Shown: piece by piece, positions 1 to 8,796 of the stretch
How positions within the stretch are numbered: position 1 is the first letter of the stretch
Layout of the letters: every line of letters begins with the position of its first letter
Assembly: GCA_040225955.1 (NCBI GenBank)
Contig: JBECUL010000078.1
Span: forward strand, 1-8,796
Length of the DNA stretch: 8,796 bases
Source: Candidatus Asgardarchaeum abyssi
Lineage (GTDB): Archaea > Asgardarchaeota > Asgardarchaeia > Asgardarchaeales > Asgardarchaeaceae
Reading direction: 5' to 3'
The notes under the pieces: generated by a model
Database searches by the model: none
What the model saw: only the letters and a program-made list of their open reading frames with translations
Told to the model about the DNA's origin: nothing
Position numbers and translations under genes: made by a program

Positions 1-661
1 TAACATAGGCAACGGCATTATCTGTTATTAGGGTTACTGGGAATCCATCTTGCTTTAACTCCCATGCTGTTAATCTCGCACCCTGGAGATATGGACGAGT
101 TTCCGTTGCAATAAATTTAACGTTCTTACCTTGTTTTCTACATTCTCGTGCTATAAGAACGAGTATACCACTTATATTGCAATGTGTCAGTACTGTATCA
201 CCATCTTTAATCAATTGTGATGCATTTTGAGCTATTTTCATTATTCTTTCTTCATGCTTTTTTATGGTTGCCGCTACAATATGTTCAACAGCTTCTACAA
301 CATCCTTTCCTCCATTATAAGCTTCTAAAGCATATTTATAGATAGAATGTGATATTGCTTTTAGTGGAAATGTTGGACGAGCATTACCTAGGGCGTCAGC
401 AGCTTCTTTTAAAATTTTTAGTATCTCTTCCGGCTTCTTATTTTTATTCTTTCTAGCGGTTAGAAGCATCGCATATAATACCGTGTATAACTGTCCAGCT
501 GCTCTTGTTCTCATCTCCTTTATTGCACGAACTGCATCATGATAGCTTGATCCTTTAATATATTCTAATTTGAAAGGTAATTTTGTTTCATCAACAATGA
601 TTAAGGTATCATCTTCGATCCAAGCTGATTTAGAAAGGATAGGCCATTCTTCTTCCGTCAT
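1..661 (-). CDS. eIF-2B alpha/beta/delta family protein, methylthioribose-1-phosphate isomerase (MtnA)-like. Partial: the N-terminus is in the window and the C-terminus runs off the left edge.
   Basis: The reverse-complement translation from the ATG at 661-659 is open to position 1. It reads MTEEEWPILSKSAWIEDDTLIIVDETKLPFKLEYIKG...IKEMRTRAAGQ...VLTHCNISG...ATETRPYLQGARLTAWELKQDGFPVTLITDNAVAYV. The THCN and ETRPxLQGARLTAWEL...TLI(T)D motifs are hallmarks of this family. It is absent from the ORF track only because it is truncated. Confidence 0.7.
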   Translation of the reverse strand, partial: MTEEEWPILSKSAWIEDDTLIIVDETKLPFKLEYIKGSSYHDAVRAIKEMRTRAAGQLYTVLYAMLLTARKNKNKKPEEILKILKEAADALGNARPTFPLKAISHSIYKYALEAYNGGKDVVEAVEHIVAATIKKHEERIMKIAQNASQLIKDGDTVLTHCNISGILVLIARECRKQGKNVKFIATETRPYLQGARLTAWELKQDGFPVTLITDNAVAYV

Positions 662-824
662 AAAAATACCCCAACAACAATTAATTTTTGGACTAGTGAC
701 TTTATTATATCTAACTTTTGACTGTTAATTAATTTAGCTCTAATTATCTTAAGAAAAATAACATAAATTGGTAATAATTAGGAGCAAATTAAATAACAAA
801 TTTCAATATCAGTTAAAAACTAGC

Positions 825-855
825 AAAATAAAAATAAAAATAAAAATAAAAAGAG
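825..855 (-). terminator. Oligo-T tract array downstream of the ECF cluster (archaeal-type terminator candidate)
   Basis: The plus strand has (AAAATA)x4 at 825-848 followed by AAAAAG. On the minus strand this gives repeated T4-T5 runs starting about 20 nt after the S-component stop codon (874-876). Confidence 0.4.
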
Positions 856-873
856 AGATGGCGGGAGTTTATT

Positions 874-1719
874 TTACTCAATAAACTCGATTCTATCTTG
901 CCAGAAGAGACCCCATTGTTTAACTATTGGTTCTAATACGTATATCAAGATTCCTGAGATAAACGCTGTTACTATGGAATTGTTTACAATAACGAATGGG
1001 AAGAACCAGCCCCAGATGACCTCGAATGGAGTACCAGTTAAACCCAGTTGTAGCAAGATGTATGTTGTGAAGCTTATATACGCAGAGCACCATATGCTGT
1101 TAATTAATACGCCCCAGAGGTAGAACTCTGCCCATGATCTACCAGTTCTTAATGAGTGATCAGTCATAAACTTATATGGTATGTAAGCTAATAAGAAGTT
1201 GCCAACAAAACCTCCTAAGCTTCCAAGACCTAAGTAACCAGCAAGACTGTCAGCAATAAAGTTACCAATAGCGGTGCCCAAGGCTCCAGGGATTCCAAAC
1301 AAAACTCCGAATACTGGTGTTAGTGAGTTGGCAGGTCTAATCCAAGTGGCGCCAGGGATTATAACTAGACCTCCCGTAGCAGCTAGCCCTCCACCGTATA
1401 CAGCAGCAACTAGACCAGCAATCGCAACATCCATACTGTCCCATTTTATCCTTTGACGAATAATCTTAAACTTTGGGAATGTAAATGTATAACCAGCTAA
1501 CTCCATGAAGAAGAAAATTGTTCCAAGTATCCAGAGAATTGCACTTATTGGAAGAATAATTGCTATTATGCTAAGTATAAATGCTCCAAACGACCATCCG
1601 AAACCATGTGTTGCAAAGTCCCATGCTCCATATACTGCAAATGCTATAACAGCCACTGCAATGACAATAGCTATTATCTTTTCGCCCATCTTTTTCTGTT
1701 CTTCAACACTTTCACTCAT
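874..1719 (-). CDS. ECF transporter substrate-binding (S) component with an N-terminal extension of roughly 90 aa and 2-3 TM segments. Substrate unknown.
   Basis: The protein is polytopic and Gly/aromatic-rich. The core WIRPANSLTPVFGVLFGIPGALGTAIGNFIADSLAG resembles S-component (QueT/RibU-like) signatures. It is the last gene in a cluster with EcfT and two EcfA genes. The ORF-track start at 1740 is a GTG. The ATG at 1719 is preceded by GGAGGTG (1732-1726) at 6 nt spacing and lies just after the upstream stop codon, so 1719 is preferred. Confidence 0.7.
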   Translation of the reverse strand: MSESVEEQKKMGEKIIAIVIAVAVIAFAVYGAWDFATHGFGWSFGAFILSIIAIILPISAILWILGTIFFFMELAGYTFTFPKFKIIRQRIKWDSMDVAIAGLVAAVYGGGLAATGGLVIIPGATWIRPANSLTPVFGVLFGIPGALGTAIGNFIADSLAGYLGLGSLGGFVGNFLLAYIPYKFMTDHSLRTGRSWAEFYLWGVLINSIWCSAYISFTTYILLQLGLTGTPFEVIWGWFFPFVIVNNSIVTAFISGILIYVLEPIVKQWGLFWQDRIEFIE

Positions 1720-1720
1720 T

Positions 1721-2017
1721 TTATGCACCTCCAGCTCCACCCTTCATTTTAACAAAGTAAATAATGCCTACAATACCTACTATAAATAATATTGCACCAA
1801 TTATATTATTGGCATAGCCGCCAGCAGCACCCTGTAGTCCATAGACTCCTGCTGCAACGAGTGCAAAGTAGAAACCAAAAGTTATAAGCCAACCTATACC
1901 AACCACCAAGAGCAACATGCCGAAGTTCTTTTTCATACCGAATTTCAGTACGAGGCCGACTACGAGTATTATGATTCCTAAAACTAATAGAAACATCATA
2001 CTTGGGTCCAATTGCAA
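1721..2017 (-). CDS. Small (about 92-98 aa) 3-TM membrane protein with a Gly-rich tail, function unknown. Possible accessory subunit of the ECF module.
   Basis: The ORF encodes MQLDPSMMFLLVLGIIILVVGLVLKF...GAAGGYANNIIGAILFIVGIVGIIYFVKMKGGAGGA, with three clear hydrophobic helices. The start is either TTG at 2017 (GAGGAT 9 nt upstream) or ATG at 1999/1996. The stop codon abuts the Shine-Dalgarno and ATG of the S-component gene, which suggests translational coupling. Confidence 0.55.
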   Translation of the reverse strand: MQLDPSMMFLLVLGIIILVVGLVLKFGMKKNFGMLLLVVGIGWLITFGFYFALVAAGVYGLQGAAGGYANNIIGAILFIVGIVGIIYFVKMKGGAGGA

Positions 2018-2058
2018 GGTTCACACATCCTCTTAATTTTATTAATTATTCCAGGTAT

Positions 2059-2127
2059 AAGACCATTTAATAAAAAATGAAAAAATAGGAGATATTTATA
2101 AATTCCTAAAGAGACCATTTAAATAAA
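2059..2127. repeat. Direct repeat AGACCATTTA(A)ATAAA, two copies about 52 nt apart, in the intergenic region upstream of the small-protein/S-component pair
   Basis: The 10-mer agaccattta occurs at 2060-2069 and again at 2112-2121. Each copy is followed by a(a)taaa. On the minus strand each copy contains a TATA-like TTTATT(T)AAAT. Confidence 0.35.
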
Positions 2128-2173
2128 GAGAAATAATTTGAAAGAATAAAAATAAAGTTAATTAAGAAAATAT

Positions 2174-3025
2174 TTATTTATCCTTTGTAATTATTTGGTT
2201 GCAAACATAATGACTTAATTCATCAGATTTTATAATATCTCTAGGTACACCGATATCACTTAGCTTTTGAGCTAAGAGAGTTATTTGAGGCGGTATTAAA
2301 TTACTTTGAATAAGTAAATCTGGCTGAGAGAGAATCTCTCGTGTTTTTCCATCAGCAAGTACTTTTCCATCCTTAAGAATTATGATTCGGTCAACATACT
2401 CAGCAAGAAGAGCAATGTCATGTGAAATGACGATTACTGTTTTTTCTAATTCCTTATTCAATTTTGTGATAGTACGCATAAGTTGATGACAGCGTTTATA
2501 ATCCAAACCAGTCGTTGGTTCATCTAAAATTAATACTTCAGGGTTTAATACAAGCACATCAGCTATTGCTACTCGATGTCTTTGACCAAGGCTAAGAAAA
2601 TGAGGAGATTTCGTTAAAGGAACATCACTCATATCTAAGTCAGCTAATACCTTTTTAACACGTTCTTCCCATTCTTCTTTGGGGACACCTTTATTTTTTA
2701 ATCCGAAGGATACTTCTTCGAATATTGTCTTGCCAAAAAGCATATGATCCGGATTTTGGAATACATAGCCAACATAATTAGAAAGTTCAGCAACACTTGC
2801 TTTAGTTGTATCAAGCCCAAAAACATACACCTTTCCTTTTGTGGGTTTTAGTAATCCATTTAAATGCTTTGCAAGAGTTGTTTTCCCTGATCCATTTTGA
2901 CCTAAAAGACCTATATATTCACCTTTTCGTATTTCGAGGGATATTCCTCTAAGAGCTTGTATATTGCCTTTATATGTAAACCAAACATCTTCAACCTTAA
3001 TTATTGGTTCACCCTTCTCGTTCAT
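2174..3025 (-). CDS. ecfA: ECF transporter ATPase component (EcfA/CbiO family), second ATPase gene of the cluster
   Basis: ABC ATPase motifs are present: Walker A GQNGSGKTT, signature LSLGQRHR, Walker B LILDEPTTGLD and H-loop SHD. The track start at 3034 is a GTG. The ATG at 3025 has GGGGTGG 5 nt upstream. It overlaps the upstream ATPase gene by 17 nt. Confidence 0.9.
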   Translation of the reverse strand: MNEKGEPIIKVEDVWFTYKGNIQALRGISLEIRKGEYIGLLGQNGSGKTTLAKHLNGLLKPTKGKVYVFGLDTTKASVAELSNYVGYVFQNPDHMLFGKTIFEEVSFGLKNKGVPKEEWEERVKKVLADLDMSDVPLTKSPHFLSLGQRHRVAIADVLVLNPEVLILDEPTTGLDYKRCHQLMRTITKLNKELEKTVIVISHDIALLAEYVDRIIILKDGKVLADGKTREILSQPDLLIQSNLIPPQITLLAQKLSDIGVPRDIIKSDELSHYVCNQIITKDK

Positions 3026-3896
3026 CCTTGCCACCCCGTTTATATTTATTAATCAGCTGCCTATACCATTTTTCAGCTTCTGTTAAGGTTACTGGGTAAG
3101 GCTTGGGAGCATTTAAACGACACATATCTTCTATGTAGTACGCAGCTTCAGTCACTTGTGGCGGACGGAACCCAATTTTCATAACAACCTCTTTCTTATT
3201 AAATACTTCTTCCGGTTTACCCTCCAGTACAATTTCACCTTTGTTCATTATAACTATTCTGTCAGCATGTTCAGCTGCCCACTCAACCCGATGGTCTACG
3301 GCAATTATTGTCATATTCAGTTCTCTATTTAACCTGGCAATAATGTCAGAGACTATCTTCTGTCCTACAGGATCCAGCATTGATGTAGGTTCATCTAGTA
3401 CGAGAACCTTTGGTTTTAGAGCAAGTACGGCAGCTATAGCCAATGCTTGCTTTTGTCCACCACTTAAAGCATATGGATTTCTATATCTTAAATCTGTCAT
3501 TCCAAGGAACTCGAGAATTTCATCCACACGCCGCTTTATTTCTTCGCGTGGCAAAGCAAAATTCTCAGGAGCGAATGCTATTTCGTCTTCAACAGTTAGA
3601 GAGGTTATTTGCGTCTCAGGATTTTGAAATACCATCCCAACAATAGTTGACATTTCTGCGATTGTATATTTTGATACATCACGACTATCTACAATTACAG
3701 TACCCTTCATCTCTCCATGAAAAAGTTTAGGAACAATTCCATTTAACGTGTAGCAGAGTGTTGACTTACCACAACCACTTGGGCCCATTATTATGATAAA
3801 TTCACCTTCCTTTACATCTAGATTTATATCCTTAAGAACCCATTCTTCAAGTCCTCGATATTTGTACCAGAGATTTTCTATTTCAACAATGCCCAT
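3009..3896 (-). CDS. ecfA: ECF transporter ATPase component (EcfA/CbiO family), first ATPase gene of the cluster
   Basis: ABC ATPase motifs are present: Walker A GPSGCGKST, Q-loop FQNPETQ, signature LSGGQKQ, Walker B LVLDEPTSMLD and H-loop VDHR. The track start at 3923 is a TTG. The ATG at 3896 has GGTGA 5 nt upstream. Confidence 0.9.
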   Translation of the reverse strand: MGIVEIENLWYKYRGLEEWVLKDINLDVKEGEFIIIMGPSGCGKSTLCYTLNGIVPKLFHGEMKGTVIVDSRDVSKYTIAEMSTIVGMVFQNPETQITSLTVEDEIAFAPENFALPREEIKRRVDEILEFLGMTDLRYRNPYALSGGQKQALAIAAVLALKPKVLVLDEPTSMLDPVGQKIVSDIIARLNRELNMTIIAVDHRVEWAAEHADRIVIMNKGEIVLEGKPEEVFNKKEVVMKIGFRPPQVTEAAYYIEDMCRLNAPKPYPVTLTEAEKWYRQLINKYKRGGKDEREG

Positions 3897-4992: not shown

Positions 4993-5146
4993 TGAATGAG
5001 TTATGTTATACCAACTTTCTTTAAGGATTTCAATTCTAGTATATAAAAGTGTTTCATAAACGAGTTTTTATTTTTTAAAATTAAAGTTTACAAAAAAGAT
5101 TTAAACTAGAAATAGGAAATGTGAATGTTAACTGGCTGGTGGTTTA

Positions 5147-5932
5147 ATGGATTTTAAAGGGAAGGTAATGAGATACATTGAAGAAAGATTAAGTGAAGAT
5201 GGCGCTTTACATTTCACTCTAATTGATCCCGATCCGCTTAAGATGAATGTAGAATCATCTGCAAAACTTGCAAGAATCGCAGCAGATTGCGGCACAGCTG
5301 CTATAATGGTAGGTGGATCAACAGCATTTGGAATAATAGATGATGTTGTTAAAGCGATTAAGGAACATGTTCCGGAGATACCTGTTATCTTGTTTCCTGG
5401 GAATGTTAATGGCATAACTAGATTCTCTGACGCTGTTTTTTTCATGAGTCTGATAAACTCTAGTGATACATATTGGATTATTGAAGCGCAGATGCTGGCA
5501 GCATTTAATATAAAAATGTGCAGAATAGAACCAATTTCATTAGCATACATAATTGTTGAACCAGGAGGTACAGCAGGATATATAGGTCATGCCAGAGTAA
5601 TACCTAGGAACAAACCTAAAATTGCTGCTGCGTTTGCCTTAGCAGCAGAATACATTGGCTATAAAATGATATACTTGGAAGCTGGTTCTGGTGCAGAAAG
5701 CCCAATCCCGCCATATTTTGTAAGAACTGTTAGAGAGGCTATTACAAGACCTTTAATTGTAGGTGGAGGAATAAGGAAGATTGAACAAGCAATCGAGATT
5801 GTAAAAAGCGGTGCAGATATAATTGTACAAGGAACTTTCATTGAAAGAGAAAAAGAAAAGAGTATTAGAAAGTTGAAAAAAATTATAGAAGGCATAAAAA
5901 ACGCTGCTCATGAAAGAAAAATTAAAAAATAA
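5147..5932 (+). CDS. Geranylgeranylglyceryl phosphate synthase (GGGPS, PcrB family), which makes the first ether bond of archaeal lipids
   Basis: Family motifs are present: HFTLIDPD, MVGGST, ILFPGN, FFMSLINS..YWII, VEPGGTAGYIG, PRNKPKIAAAFALAAEY, YLEAGSGA and IVGGGIR. GGTGG lies 4 nt upstream of the ATG at 5147. Confidence 0.92.
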   Translation: MDFKGKVMRYIEERLSEDGALHFTLIDPDPLKMNVESSAKLARIAADCGTAAIMVGGSTAFGIIDDVVKAIKEHVPEIPVILFPGNVNGITRFSDAVFFMSLINSSDTYWIIEAQMLAAFNIKMCRIEPISLAYIIVEPGGTAGYIGHARVIPRNKPKIAAAFALAAEYIGYKMIYLEAGSGAESPIPPYFVRTVREAITRPLIVGGGIRKIEQAIEIVKSGADIIVQGTFIEREKEKSIRKLKKIIEGIKNAAHERKIKK

Positions 5933-7640
5933 AATCAATAGAGGCTATCCAAAGTACATGCAAGGCTATTATAAGGCCTTCGCCAGCTACGACACCACCT
6001 AATATTTGTTTATATTTATTTATTATTTCTTCAGTGCGGTTTTGAACATATTTTGAAATCAAACCACCTAATAGTAAAGGTATCGAATACGCAGGTGGAA
6101 TCAGTAGACCAACCGCAAGTGTTATAGGAGATATATTTCTTTTATGAAGAGCTATTGAGGCAGCTATCCCTAATGATAAGAATCCTATAAGATATGGTAT
6201 ACCAAACTCATCAGCAAATGGTAATGAGAATGTCGTCAGTTTCATGAGACTTAAAACTGTGAATCCCATAAGCTGAGCTGTAGGAGCCGGAAACTCATGA
6301 GTACCAAAGCCAAAAGGGGGTTTAGAGAAAATGTATATTAGCCATGTTCCAATTATTGTGCCAAAGATGGTACCCGTTATTGCTGATTTTCGTATTGTTT
6401 CATCATGAACTTTTAATCTTCGTCCTAAAACATATCGGCCAAGCAAAGTTACTGCTGCGCTTTGAACAGCAGCCATTAACGTCATAAAGAGAATAACACT
6501 AGGGAAATTTATTGAGAAAAAGAGTATAGCTGGTACAGCTAATGCGTCTGTAATAAAACCAACAACCATACCTGTTTCGCTTGCAGCACGTGCTACAAAA
6601 AAGGCAGAAATAAGAACTAAAGGGAGGCCTATTAGTAACAGAAGAGGGGGGATCGTTATCGGAAAGAAAAAGCCTGAAATTGAGAATAAGAATACACTAA
6701 TTACGTAGAAAAGTATTAAGGACAACAGAGAGCATTTCCATTGCTTAAGAAATAAAAACAAATTTTCCTTCGAAAAGAAGACCTCTACTGCCTCTCGCTC
6801 CTCCTCTTCTAAACTTACTGTTTTTGATTCCTTATACGCAGACCAGGCATCTAAAGCTATCGTAGTGCCAACAATTCCTATTGCTGTATAAAATATTTCT
6901 GGACGGGTTACATGTTCGCCAAAAAGTATGTGAGGATCTCGCTCAAGTAAAAACCAAACAAGCATAGAAAAAAGAGAACCTATGAAAATCAGAAGTGTTC
7001 TTCTAAAACCAGCAAAAAACCCTATTCCAACCAACATAGGGCTATTGCTAATACCAATATAAGGCGGAACCTCCGTGACCCCAACACCATGAGGTATTGT
7101 TCGCAAATCATATTTAGTCATTTGTGATAGCCCAATAATGGTACCCATGTACGCACCCGCGCCGAGCAAGCCAATCATCATATTTCTTTTAGTTTGGACG
7201 TTTCCCTCTGAAAGAGAAATTATATTTTGAACTTGAGCTTCTATTTGTGGCCAAGGTTCGTCCATGAATGCCTCCTTAGCAGGTTCCAACAGAAAAAGAC
7301 CTGTAAAGCCAGTAAGCGCTATCATGGTAAAAATTAGAGGCATTGTTATTTCAACTTCGGGAATCCTTGCTAAGTGAGAGAACATAGAAATTGCAGGAAA
7401 AGCTACTAGGACACCAATATTCACAAGAACGGATGCCGTTGTTATTGTAATAACAATAACATTATCTTTAGGATCATACTTTCCAAATAAACTCAAAAGT
7501 ATAAAACCCAGTATCTCCATTCCAGTAACGACAACAAATCCTACTTTTAGTTCTATATATATTTGCAAGAAAGTATAAAGGAAGGCTAAGAAAAAACCTA
7601 CTAGTAAAGTATGTAAATTAAGTACATCTCTCTTAGCCAT
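5922..7640 (-). CDS. OPT (oligopeptide transporter) superfamily membrane transporter
   Basis: The protein is about 572 aa and highly polytopic, with an OPT-like N-terminus (LLVGFFLAFLYTFLQIYIELKVGF) and one acidic loop (SLEEEEREAVE). The track start at 7652 is a GTG. The ATG four codons in (about 7640) is preceded by GGTG. Its 3' end overlaps the GGGPS 3' end by 11 nt in convergent orientation. Confidence 0.75.
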   Translation of the reverse strand: MAKRDVLNLHTLLVGFFLAFLYTFLQIYIELKVGFVVVTGMEILGFILLSLFGKYDPKDNVIVITITTASVLVNIGVLVAFPAISMFSHLARIPEVEITMPLIFTMIALTGFTGLFLLEPAKEAFMDEPWPQIEAQVQNIISLSEGNVQTKRNMMIGLLGAGAYMGTIIGLSQMTKYDLRTIPHGVGVTEVPPYIGISNSPMLVGIGFFAGFRRTLLIFIGSLFSMLVWFLLERDPHILFGEHVTRPEIFYTAIGIVGTTIALDAWSAYKESKTVSLEEEEREAVEVFFSKENLFLFLKQWKCSLLSLILFYVISVFLFSISGFFFPITIPPLLLLIGLPLVLISAFFVARAASETGMVVGFITDALAVPAILFFSINFPSVILFMTLMAAVQSAAVTLLGRYVLGRRLKVHDETIRKSAITGTIFGTIIGTWLIYIFSKPPFGFGTHEFPAPTAQLMGFTVLSLMKLTTFSLPFADEFGIPYLIGFLSLGIAASIALHKRNISPITLAVGLLIPPAYSIPLLLGGLISKYVQNRTEEIINKYKQILGGVVAGEGLIIALHVLWIASIDFIF

Positions 7641-7865
7641 ATTATGCACCACTTGACGTTCATTAATATCAATTTAAGTGGTAAGGCACAGATGAAAACA
7701 AAGCAATAATAGTAACAAAACTATTTACTTTTTCATCTTTATTTTTTTCGATACCTACGATCAAAATTCTTTTGTACATTTCAATAGTTAATTGAGTCAA
7801 TAAATAAAATTATTAGTATGGAATTATTAAACAATAATATAAGTCTATTCTTAGGCGGTGGTTGT

Positions 7866-8373: not shown

Positions 8374-8508
8374 TGGGGCCGCTGGGAGTTGAACCCAGGC
8401 TAGCAGGTCTCTCCTTCGCGCTCCAGAGGCTCGTCATCCTAGCGTCAGCAGACCTGCTTTTTAAAATCCTCTGGAGCCTGCCGTGCTACCTGGCTACACC
8501 ACGGCCCC
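8374..8508 (-). tRNA. tRNA-Trp (anticodon CCA) with a 62-nt intron at the canonical 37/38 position. CCA is not encoded.
   Basis: The minus strand folds as a cloverleaf. The acceptor stem is GGGGCCG/CGGCCCC with discriminator A, and U8 is present. The D arm is GUGU-AGCCAGGUA-GCAC and the anticodon stem is GCAGG/CCUGC. The anticodon loop is CUCCAG|intron|A, and the T arm is CUGGG-UUCAACU-CCCAG. Exon 1 is 8508-8471, the intron is 8470-8409 and exon 2 is 8408-8374, giving a 73-nt mature tRNA. The BHB has the central helix CUCC(32-35)/GGAG, with AGA bulges on both strands placing the cuts after G37 and before A38. Confidence 0.9.
8409..8470 (-). ncRNA. Box C/D-like guide RNA embedded in the tRNA-Trp intron
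   Basis: The intron is AGGAUUUUAAAAAGCAGGUCUGCUGACGCUAGGAUGACGAGCCUCUGGAGCGCGAAGGAGAG. It has an internal D'-like CUGA (8448-8445) and a C'-like AGGAUGA(CGA) (8440-8431). The terminal boxes are degenerate: C is AGGAUUU and D is GCGA, but they can still form tandem G.A pairs. Guide 1, AGCAGGUCU (8458-8450), is complementary to pre-tRNA AG+A38-U44. Guide 2, CCUCUGGAGC (8429-8420), is complementary to G31-G37 plus the first 3 intron nt. Confidence 0.6.
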
Positions 8509-8519
8509 AAAATGAATGA

Positions 8520-8672
8520 TAGCAGCACCGTTCCGTGGTCGAAATGGGAACGGGTGTTTCCCCTTGCCTATGACCGTCGGCAAAGCCGACAGCCATCCGG
8601 GCTTCCCGTCGGCTCTCGCACGACAGTACAACCCGGACCGCGCAAGGGCTTAACTTTCACGCGGTGCTGCTA
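8520..8672 (-). rRNA. Circularly permuted 5S rRNA gene (3' half, then helix I hairpin, then 5' half) flanked by a BHB processing motif
   Basis: The minus strand 8672->8520 reads TAGCAGCACCG-CGTG-AAA-GTTAAGCCCTTGCGCGGTCCGGGTTGTACTGTCGTGCGAGAGCCGACGGGAAGCCCGGATGGCTGTCGGC-TTT-GCCGACGGTCATAGGCAAGGGGAAACACCCGTTCCCATTTCGAC-CACG-GAA-CGGTGCTGCTA. All conserved archaeal 5S blocks are present, but in swapped order. These blocks are CAUAG, helix II GCAAGGG/CCCUUGC, AACACCCGUUCCCAUUUCGA, AAGUUAAGCC, GUUGUACUG...GCGAGAG...GGGAAGCC and helix I. Details are in the findings. Confidence 0.85.
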
Positions 8673-8698
8673 TCGTAAATGGATAAAATAAAAGTATT

Positions 8699-8711
8699 GA
8701 TAAATTTTTCG
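8699..8711 (-). promoter_or_regulatory. Candidate BRE/TATA for the 5S-tRNA-Trp unit
   Basis: The minus strand reads CGAAAAATTTATC, a purine-rich stretch followed by an A/T box. It is centred about 30 nt upstream of the first base of the 5S leader helix (8672). The call rests on position only. Confidence 0.25.
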
Positions 8712-8736
8712 ATTATTGGGAGCACTTGTAAAAAAT

Positions 8737-8796
8737 ATGCCTCAAAAAATCAAATTTCAGCCCCTTTTGAAAAATAAAGCTCCGTATCCACTTATC
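8737..8796 (+). CDS. Possible 5' end of an unidentified gene running off the right edge
   Basis: The frame from the ATG at 8737 is open to the window end (MPQKIKFQPLLKNKAPYPLI...). GGGAG lies about 14 nt upstream. Only 20 codons are visible and nothing in them is recognisable. Confidence 0.2.
   Translation, partial: MPQKIKFQPLLKNKAPYPLI

Follow-up and report, generated by a model that had tools for sequence, protein, structure and literature searches.

The minus strand of the investigated DNA of an Asgard archaeon carries a circularly permuted 5S rRNA gene, at about 8674-8518, in which helix I, normally the open end of the molecule, is closed by a UUU triloop. The 3' two-thirds of the 5S comes first, followed by the capped helix I and then by the 5' third, and a bulge-helix-bulge (BHB) motif of the tRNA-intron type lies at the new ends. 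Cutting and ligating at this motif would give a 124-nt circle and restore the consensus CGGAAGUUAAG of helix III and loop B. A covalently circular mature 5S rRNA is the best reading of these data, but it is inferred from DNA sequence and comparison alone. In the literature searched, which lacks most subscription journals, neither a circular mature 5S rRNA for any ribosome nor a permuted or BHB-flanked archaeal 5S gene was found described. Only the mitochondrial 5S case, minor circular 5S species and 23S cases were found.

The capped helix I and its processing signals

First, we examined the hairpin itself. The term window is used for the whole analyzed stretch of 8,796 nucleotides. On the minus strand the sequence reads UGGCUGUCGGC (8595-8585), UUU (plus-strand aaa) and GCCGACGGUCA (8581-8571), allowing 11 pairs, 9 Watson-Crick and 2 G.U. 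The hairpin described by the sequence-only reading was thus confirmed, although it ends at 8595 and the range given there, up to 8600, includes 5 extra bases. The 25-nt hairpin folds at -17.4 kcal/mol (z = -5.6) and the 9-bp core at -13.8 kcal/mol (z = -4.7), and in neither case did any of 200 shuffles fold as well. Only the inner 9 bp match helix I of the Rfam 5S model. The outer two pairs use the CA of the invariant loop A motif CAUAG and are possible only in part of the window's own clade, so the 11-bp stem of the sequence-only reading overstates helix I by two non-conserved pairs. Even the nearest relative with a UUU loop (locus L041) has an A.C mismatch there, and the homologous loci L003, L009 and L010 are also mismatched. 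The same 169-nt sequence, including UUU, occurs in contigs from two other datasets, JGI 3300013103 and ENA ERZ27245482, so the triloop is not an assembly error.

At the Rfam gathering threshold (38 bits for RF00001) the only RNA reported in the window was a tRNA. Using relaxed thresholds, two sub-threshold 5S matches appeared back to back on the minus strand, 8677-8584 with the 3' part of the model (25.5 bits) and 8581-8475 with the 5' part (21.0 bits), together spanning the whole model. Failure to reach the gathering score is what a permuted gene order predicts. Once the order is restored all elements of a 5S rRNA are present, i.e. helices I-V, loop A CAUAG, loop C CCCAU..CGA, GUUAAG and the loop E GUACUG..GGGAA. 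The minimum free energy (MFE) fold of the 124-mer as a circle is the 5S three-way shape, with helix III running across the junction. Rotated to start at helix I, the sequence aligned end to end with canonical 5S genes of Thor, Bathyarchaeia and Ranarchaeia, with 78-89 of 121 positions identical (89 to the spliced Ranarchaeia 5S, 78 to Thorarchaeota) against only 36-49 in genomic order. A covariance model built here (R1) scored it at 177.6 bits.

The gene is bracketed by a perfect 13-bp inverted repeat, and directly inside it a search found a canonical 3-4-3 BHB with an inner helix of 3 bp (Table 1). In archaeal splicing the cut is placed after the second bulge nucleotide. The same rule gives the canonical 37/38 intron position in the tRNA-Trp of this window. 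Joining ...CACGGA to AGUUAAG... reproduces the Rfam consensus CggAAguUAAG. The central BHB helix competes with mature helix III, and the plain MFE fold of the precursor does not show the BHB. However, constrained folding placed the BHB conformer, which also keeps helices I, II, IV and V, only 1.6 kcal/mol above the MFE.

Table 1. Features of the permuted 5S rRNA gene and its surroundings; cut sites and functions are predicted from sequence.
Feature	Coordinates	Strand	Sequence	Remarks
Promoter-like (BRE/TATA-like) element	8699..8710	-	GAAAAAUUUAUC	Purine-rich stretch followed by a TATA-like box, about 25 nt upstream of the outer helix; function inferred
Outer processing helix (helix h of the BHB), 5' arm	8662..8674	-	GAUAGCAGCACCG	100% complementary to the 3' arm over 13 nt
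BHB central helix H, leader strand	8658..8661	-	CGUG	Pairs with CACG at 8537-8534
5' BHB bulge	8655..8657	-	AAA	Predicted cut between 8656 and 8655
Permuted 5S rRNA, excised segment	8532..8655	-		124 nt; order: helix III 3' base, helix II 3' strand, helix V/IV arm, helix I hairpin, loop A, helix II 5' strand, helix III with loop C
Helix I, 3' strand	8585..8593	-	GCUGUCGGC
Triloop capping helix I	8582..8584	-	UUU	Position of the 5' and 3' ends in an ordinary 5S rRNA
Helix I, 5' strand	8573..8581	-	GCCGACGGU	Followed by loop A CAUAG
BHB central helix H, 3' strand	8534..8537	-	CACG	Part of helix III in the mature fold
3' BHB bulge	8531..8533	-	GAA	Predicted cut between 8532 and 8531
Outer processing helix, 3' arm	8518..8530	-	CGGUGCUGCUAUC
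tRNA-Trp(CCA)	8374..8508	-		62-nt BHB intron at 8470-8409; starts 9 nt after the outer helix; probably co-transcribed with the 5S, inferred from this spacing

Conservation and synteny in Asgard archaea

In order to find relatives, we searched with a pattern whose order can occur only in a permuted gene (loop D to GGGAA, then CAUAG, then ACNCCCG). In a collection of one genome for each of 185,579 species it matched 8 loci, all 8 in Asgard or unclassified archaeal MAGs, namely three Odinarchaeia, one Helarchaeota, two 'Promethearchaeota' and two unclassified archaeal MAGs. A looser pattern applied to JGI metagenomes gave 19 hits, of which 11 were real loci, while 8 were chance matches in GC-rich DNA, rejected by eye and by the covariance model. 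Seven of these loci share as neighbouring genes DUF1512, a small ORF and a cytidylyltransferase-like gene. Starting from DUF1512 homologues, permuted 5S genes were found in MAGs labelled Njordarchaeota, Lokiarchaeota (Hel-like) and Hodarchaeota and in an Odin-like contig. A profilin homologue led to a second species, GCA_052584985.1 (L041), whose permuted 5S also has the UUU triloop. In total 21 distinct homologues were obtained, all in Asgard or unclassified archaeal MAGs (Odin, Hel/Loki, Njord, Hod and unclassified ones), with taxon labels as given in the database records. The covariance model finds the permuted gene at 91-178 bits. Among the DUF1512 and profilin hits no megabase-scale contig of a cultured strain appeared, and neither Prometheoarchaeum nor Lokiarchaeum was hit by the strict genome pattern, which however demands 24 exact bases.

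In all 21 distinct sequences helix I is a closed hairpin of 7-9 bp. Conservation of this pairing had been named by the sequence-only reading as a point on which its interpretation could fail, and the pairing is conserved. The four junction-proximal pairs are nearly constant (G-Y, C-G, U.G and G-C), while the distal pairs switch among U-A, C-G, A-U and G-C. As a MAFFT alignment put helix I out of register, anchor-based counting and realignment to the covariance model were used instead. On the model-based alignment of 20 distinct sequences helix I was 98.8% paired, with 5 of its 9 pairs changing on both sides. For the whole structure 90.8% of cells were paired, against 37-43% when the partners were slid, 38 of 55 pairs showed double changes, and the covariation score was 0.62 against about 0.1. 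None of 500 shuffles reached the observed values. We are aware that this alignment was fitted to the model, which favours it somewhat, but the anchor-based count agreed.

The caps are UUCG (13), UGCG (2), CUCG (1), GCCG (1), AUU (2) and UUU (2), so that 16 of 21 homologues have a YNCG-type tetraloop, a compact and stable cap. The window itself does not have such a tetraloop. Its closest relatives outside the UUU pair have C(UUCG)G, and compared with one of them (L011) the window differs by one loop base together with a compensatory A-U to G-C change in the stem. The UUU cap is therefore a derived variant of the YNCG cap.

The processing signals are conserved as well. The outer helix covaries at all 13 pairs, and the central helix H covaries between lineages as CGUG/CACG, CCGG/CCGG, GCCG/CGGC, GUCG/CGGC or GCCG/CGGU. 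A canonical 3-4-3 motif is present in at least 17 of the 21 homologues (13 of the first 16 by the automatic search). L016 has one that the automatic search ranked second, L027 has an A.C mismatch in the central helix, and L028 lacks an obvious canonical BHB. The junction sits in four registers, and in the three classes checked explicitly the cut-and-join rule restores the 5S consensus at the junction and leaves exactly four nucleotides between CGG and UAAG. In the window the promoter-like element lies upstream of the outer helix and a T-rich tract follows it. Similar AAAnnTTTATA-type elements at the same distance upstream and a T-rich tract recur in the homologues.

Ordinary 5S genes were found at the same position in Thorarchaeota, Bathyarchaeia and a 1.9-Mb contig, and a colinear 5S with a 47-nt BHB-flanked insertion in loop C was found in Ranarchaeia. 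A canonical 5S lies next to the DUF1512 gene in Thor, Bathyarchaeia, the locus L040 and Ranarchaeia, and the permuted 5S lies in the same position in Njord, Hel/Loki and Hod. No canonical 5S was found in any locus holding a permuted one, a result limited to the fetched loci, so that a second, canonical 5S gene elsewhere in these genomes is not excluded. In the loci L012, L020 and L018 the permuted gene lies within about 0.7 kb of the 23S gene, with no canonical 5S nearby. The intron-like insertion of Ranarchaeia, close to the permutation break point, suggests how such genes arise.

Inferred maturation of the permuted 5S rRNA

The sequence and comparative evidence supports that the gene is a permuted but complete 5S with a capped helix I, that the transcript can fold into nearly the whole 5S structure, that a canonical BHB lies at the new ends, that purifying selection acts on every helix, that this architecture is conserved, with covariation, across Asgard lineages, and that the gene occupies the genomic position where other archaea have an ordinary 5S gene. 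Transcription, cleavage, ligation and ribosome incorporation, in contrast, are all inferred. In this view the tRNA-splicing endonuclease EndA would excise the 5S like an intron, RtcB would join its 2',3'-cyclic phosphate and 5'-OH ends, as it does for tRNA introns and pre-16S/23S rRNA, and the closed circle would be incorporated into the 50S subunit with helix I still capped, the cap being passive and solvent-exposed and not a processing site. The flanking leader and trailer would also be joined, leaving a hairpin just upstream of the tRNA-Trp precursor, and the 5S would behave like an intron in the leader of a 5S/tRNA-Trp transcript. We hold this reading with moderate confidence. Three precedents support it: the permuted SRP RNA of Thermoproteus is cut at a BHB and stays circular (PMC4731332), Escherichia coli lives with a 5S whose native ends, at least 50 A from 23S rRNA, are joined by a tetraloop (PMC7283268), and circular 23S rRNA has been reported inside archaeal ribosomes (PMC12918454). 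On the other hand, 23S rRNA of P. furiosus shows that archaea can re-open a circular rRNA (PMC7758197).

The interpretation of the sequence-only reading was partly supported. Its premise, that this is helix I of a 5S rRNA with both strands joined by a loop, that BHB excision and ligation would leave no ends, and that opening the loop would give about 121 nt, is supported by sequence and comparison. It left a molecule that stays circular and a second cut as equal alternatives, and the homologues make these unequal.

A linear permuted 5S, cut by EndA but not or only partly ligated, cannot be excluded from DNA alone, but appears unlikely. The ribosome would then carry a 124-nt 5S with capped helix I and termini in the internal loop at the base of helix III. 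The nucleotides are the same and could fold in the same way, and helix II (7 bp) and the GUU/AAC pairs would hold a nicked molecule together. Brown-algal mitochondrial 5S rRNAs are linear with helix I replaced by a closed hairpin (PMC4267664), and the junction register differs by up to 3 nt between lineages, so the exact break point is not critical. However, the ends produced by EndA are the substrates of RtcB, and excised BHB segments such as tRNA introns, pre-16S and pre-23S rRNA are found as circles. The open form of the permuted Thermoproteus SRP RNA bound its proteins less well than the closed form (PMC4731332), and the break lies in one of the most conserved stretches of 5S.

A circular intermediate followed by a second cut, which would place 5' ends at GCCGACGG... 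and 3' ends at ...GUCGGC, is still less likely. It has precedents in the permuted tRNA genes of C. merolae, which are expressed through a circular intermediate and then matured to conventional ends (summarised in PMC4267664), and in P. furiosus 23S rRNA, which is circularised and re-linearised by excision of helix 98 (PMC7758197). Here, the linker is only 3-4 nt in all 21 homologues, is not conserved in sequence and is usually a hyperstable YNCG tetraloop, helix I length varies, no conserved flanking motif or tRNA-like element is present that a nuclease could recognise, and 5S does not need free ends to work (PMC7283268). This looks like a passive cap and not like a conserved nuclease site or a removable linker. 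A non-functional relic, with the real 5S elsewhere in the genome, is very unlikely: although neither half reaches the Rfam gathering score and the absence of a canonical 5S is shown only for the fetched loci, all helices are kept by compensatory change across several Asgard lineages, and the gene has its own promoter-like element and T-rich tail, sits at the syntenic position of the canonical 5S of Thor and Bathyarchaeia, and in three loci lies close to the 23S gene. A terminator or a chance inverted repeat was also considered for the hairpin, and rejected because it lies inside the 5S, corresponds position by position to helix I, and covaries.

The principle of a permuted gene whose normal connectivity is restored by BHB excision and ligation is known from SRP RNA and tRNAs, while its application to 5S rRNA, across so many Asgard lineages, is new as far as we could establish. 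The closest precedent is the SRP RNA of Thermoproteus tenax and T. uzoniensis (Plagens et al. 2015, PMC4731332), where the 3' part of the gene also precedes the 5' part and is missed by standard annotation, the new termini lie in a BHB cut by the tRNA splicing endonuclease, ligation restores a conserved functional element, and the mature RNA is circular. It is not an rRNA, however, and is known from two species of one genus, with circularity shown by RNA-seq, Northern blots and cleavage assays, whereas here the feature spans several Asgard lineages and circularity is only inferred. In the permuted tRNA genes of Cyanidioschyzon merolae (Soma et al. 2007, as summarised in PMC4267664) the halves are likewise inverted and expressed through a circular RNA, but the acceptor-stem ends are regenerated and the product is linear, whereas here the link is a short hairpin cap with no recognisable processing signal. 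The circularly permuted 23S rRNA of Pyrococcus and Thermococcus (PMC7758197; bioRxiv 10.64898/2026.03.23.713588) and the circular 23S rRNA in archaeal ribosomes (PMC12918454) show an rRNA of the large subunit excised at a BHB and circularised, and that circular or rearranged rRNA topology is tolerated in functional ribosomes. There, the gene is colinear and the RNA becomes circular or permuted, while here the gene is permuted and circularisation would restore the normal connectivity. Those papers state, or imply, that 5S is not processed through a BHB; 16S and 23S, but not 5S, are said to be processed through circularisation (PMC12918454).

The permuted mitochondrial 5S rRNA of brown algae (Valach et al. 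2014, PMC4267664) is a natural 5S with helix I as a closed hairpin, but it is organellar and linear with an open three-way junction, has its termini at the junction of two domains, and involves neither BHB nor ligation. In the engineered cp5S rRNA of E. coli (Huang et al. 2020, PMC7283268) the native ends are linked by a tetraloop, new ends are opened in the helix III or helix IV arm and the ribosomes are active, but this 5S is artificial, covalently inserted into 23S rRNA and not circular. Covalently circular RNAs of 5S size from Sulfolobus, Halobacterium and Pyrococcus (PMC3326292, PMC12558985) derive from colinear genes without a BHB, with heterogeneous junctions and low abundance, and are interpreted by the authors as possible intermediates or degradation products. 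A T. barophilus preprint likewise treats such rare species as possible degradation products that form without a BHB.

5S rRNA is regarded as an essentially invariant, linear molecule that is easy to annotate, and as the one archaeal rRNA not processed through a BHB and circularisation. If the circular reading holds widely, which we consider somewhat more likely than not, ribosomes of a large part of the Asgard archaea, including lineages labelled Hodarchaeota and Njordarchaeota as well as Odin, Hel and Loki-type organisms, would contain a covalently closed 5S rRNA, excised and ligated by the tRNA-splicing machinery as if it were an intron. It would be the first natural ribosome whose 5S rRNA has no ends, and it would explain why 5S genes go unannotated in these genomes. 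Standard pipelines miss the gene, which affects MAG quality scoring that requires a 5S gene. It also gives a natural test of whether 5S needs free ends or autonomy during ribosome assembly.

Other features of the window

The window has about 35% G+C and encodes a weak profilin match (Pfam E = 3.4e-4, below the curated cutoff), a GGGP synthase (PcrB), an OPT transporter and ECF-type transporter genes. Together with the Asgard-only relatives of the permuted gene, this points to an Asgard archaeon. The tRNA-Trp was found by Rfam (49.4 bits), with inverted repeats pairing the intron with the exons, while ARAGORN found no tRNA in the window, a miss explained by the long intron. A weak CRISPR-DR21 hit at 8740-8773 (E = 1), a togavirus hit and the sR40/sR3 hits were treated as chance. 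The sR40/sR3 hits fall in the tRNA-Trp intron, which does look like a C/D-box RNA.

Loci around the 5S rRNA genes

Coordinates and strands of the features in the window and in the compared loci (L numbers denote the loci examined)
Locus	Position	Strand	Feature
Window	8374-8508	-	tRNA-Trp(CCA)
Window	8409-8470	-	62-nt intron of the tRNA-Trp gene
Window	8720-8796		Last 77 bases, without match in L001 and L002
Window	8740-8773		Weak CRISPR-repeat-like hit (E = 1)
Window	5128-5550	-	140-aa ORF antisense to the PcrB/GGGP synthase gene
L032 (Ranarchaeia)	7560-7728	+	Colinear 5S rRNA
L032 (Ranarchaeia)	7605-7651	+	47-nt insertion in loop C, also in L033
L038	3235-3355		5S gene just upstream of a DUF1512 gene
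L037	5249-5368		5S gene just upstream of a DUF1512 gene
L040	7740-7859		5S gene just upstream of a DUF1512 gene (canonical)
L030	7634-7801		5S gene just upstream of a DUF1512 gene
L036	7334-7495		5S gene just upstream of a DUF1512 gene
L034	4526-4694		5S gene just upstream of a DUF1512 gene
L028 (Hel-like)	490-655, and flanks	-	Permuted 5S
L012 (close relative)	5555-5724	-	Permuted 5S
L012 (close relative)	6373-9456	+	23S rRNA gene
L018 (close relative)	2530-2699	+	Permuted 5S
L018 (close relative)	from 3275	+	23S rRNA gene
L041 (related species)	7982-9446		Region compared with L002
L002 (contig of the window's species)	185-3219		Region compared with L041

Introns and BHB variants

The intron of the tRNA-Trp gene was found at the canonical 37/38 position. 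Its BHB consists of H of CUCC/GGAG and bulges AGA and AGA. The intron holds two stretches of 9-10 nt complementary to the anticodon loop and to the 3' anticodon stem, plus CUGA and GAUGA boxes, and looks like the C/D-box guide RNA found inside the tRNA-Trp intron of Haloferax. The gene was missed by ARAGORN. It starts only 9 nt after the 5S outer helix.

The 5S rRNA of Ranarchaeia scored 77 bits in Rfam. Its insertion was found flanked by a BHB-like motif, with H of UCCG/CGGG, bulges AAA and AAC, and a 6-bp inner helix, and represents a candidate BHB intron in a 5S rRNA gene. As it lies 6-8 nt from the break point of the permuted genes, it may be an evolutionary intermediate. No obvious canonical BHB was observed for the Hel-like permuted 5S of L028. 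Its leader carries an inserted 10-bp hairpin (CUAAAUUCGG/CCGAAUUUAG), and the central helix would have an A.C mismatch. One mismatch in the central helix was also found in L027, a further permuted 5S locus.

Gene neighborhood of the 5S genes

Just upstream of the DUF1512 gene, the 5S gene was found canonical in Thorarchaeota, Bathyarchaeia and L040, and permuted in Njord, Hel/Loki and Hod. This synteny is conserved across phyla. In the Odin and Promethearchaeota loci the 5S lies instead after the cytidylyltransferase-like gene of the same cluster.

In close relatives of the window organism the permuted 5S was located 0.6-0.7 kb upstream of the 23S rRNA gene. The two genes are divergent in L012 and L020, while in L018 they are co-oriented, with a tRNA-Trp in between. 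No 5S was found to follow the 23S gene within the 160-270 nt of sequence available.

Furthermore, we compared the related species of L041 with the window's species. In the former the profilin gene abuts the TFIIB gene, while in the latter a block of tRNA-Trp, permuted 5S and a 262-aa ORF lies between them. In L041 the 5S sits about 4 kb away, beside the homologous 262-aa ORF. The 5S block has therefore moved recently.

Window end and antisense ORF

The contigs L001 and L002 were found 99% identical to the window up to 8719, but did not match its end, which could reflect strain variation or an assembly join. The CRISPR-repeat-like hit in this stretch is probably chance. The ORF antisense to the PcrB/GGGP synthase gene showed no Pfam match and is probably spurious.
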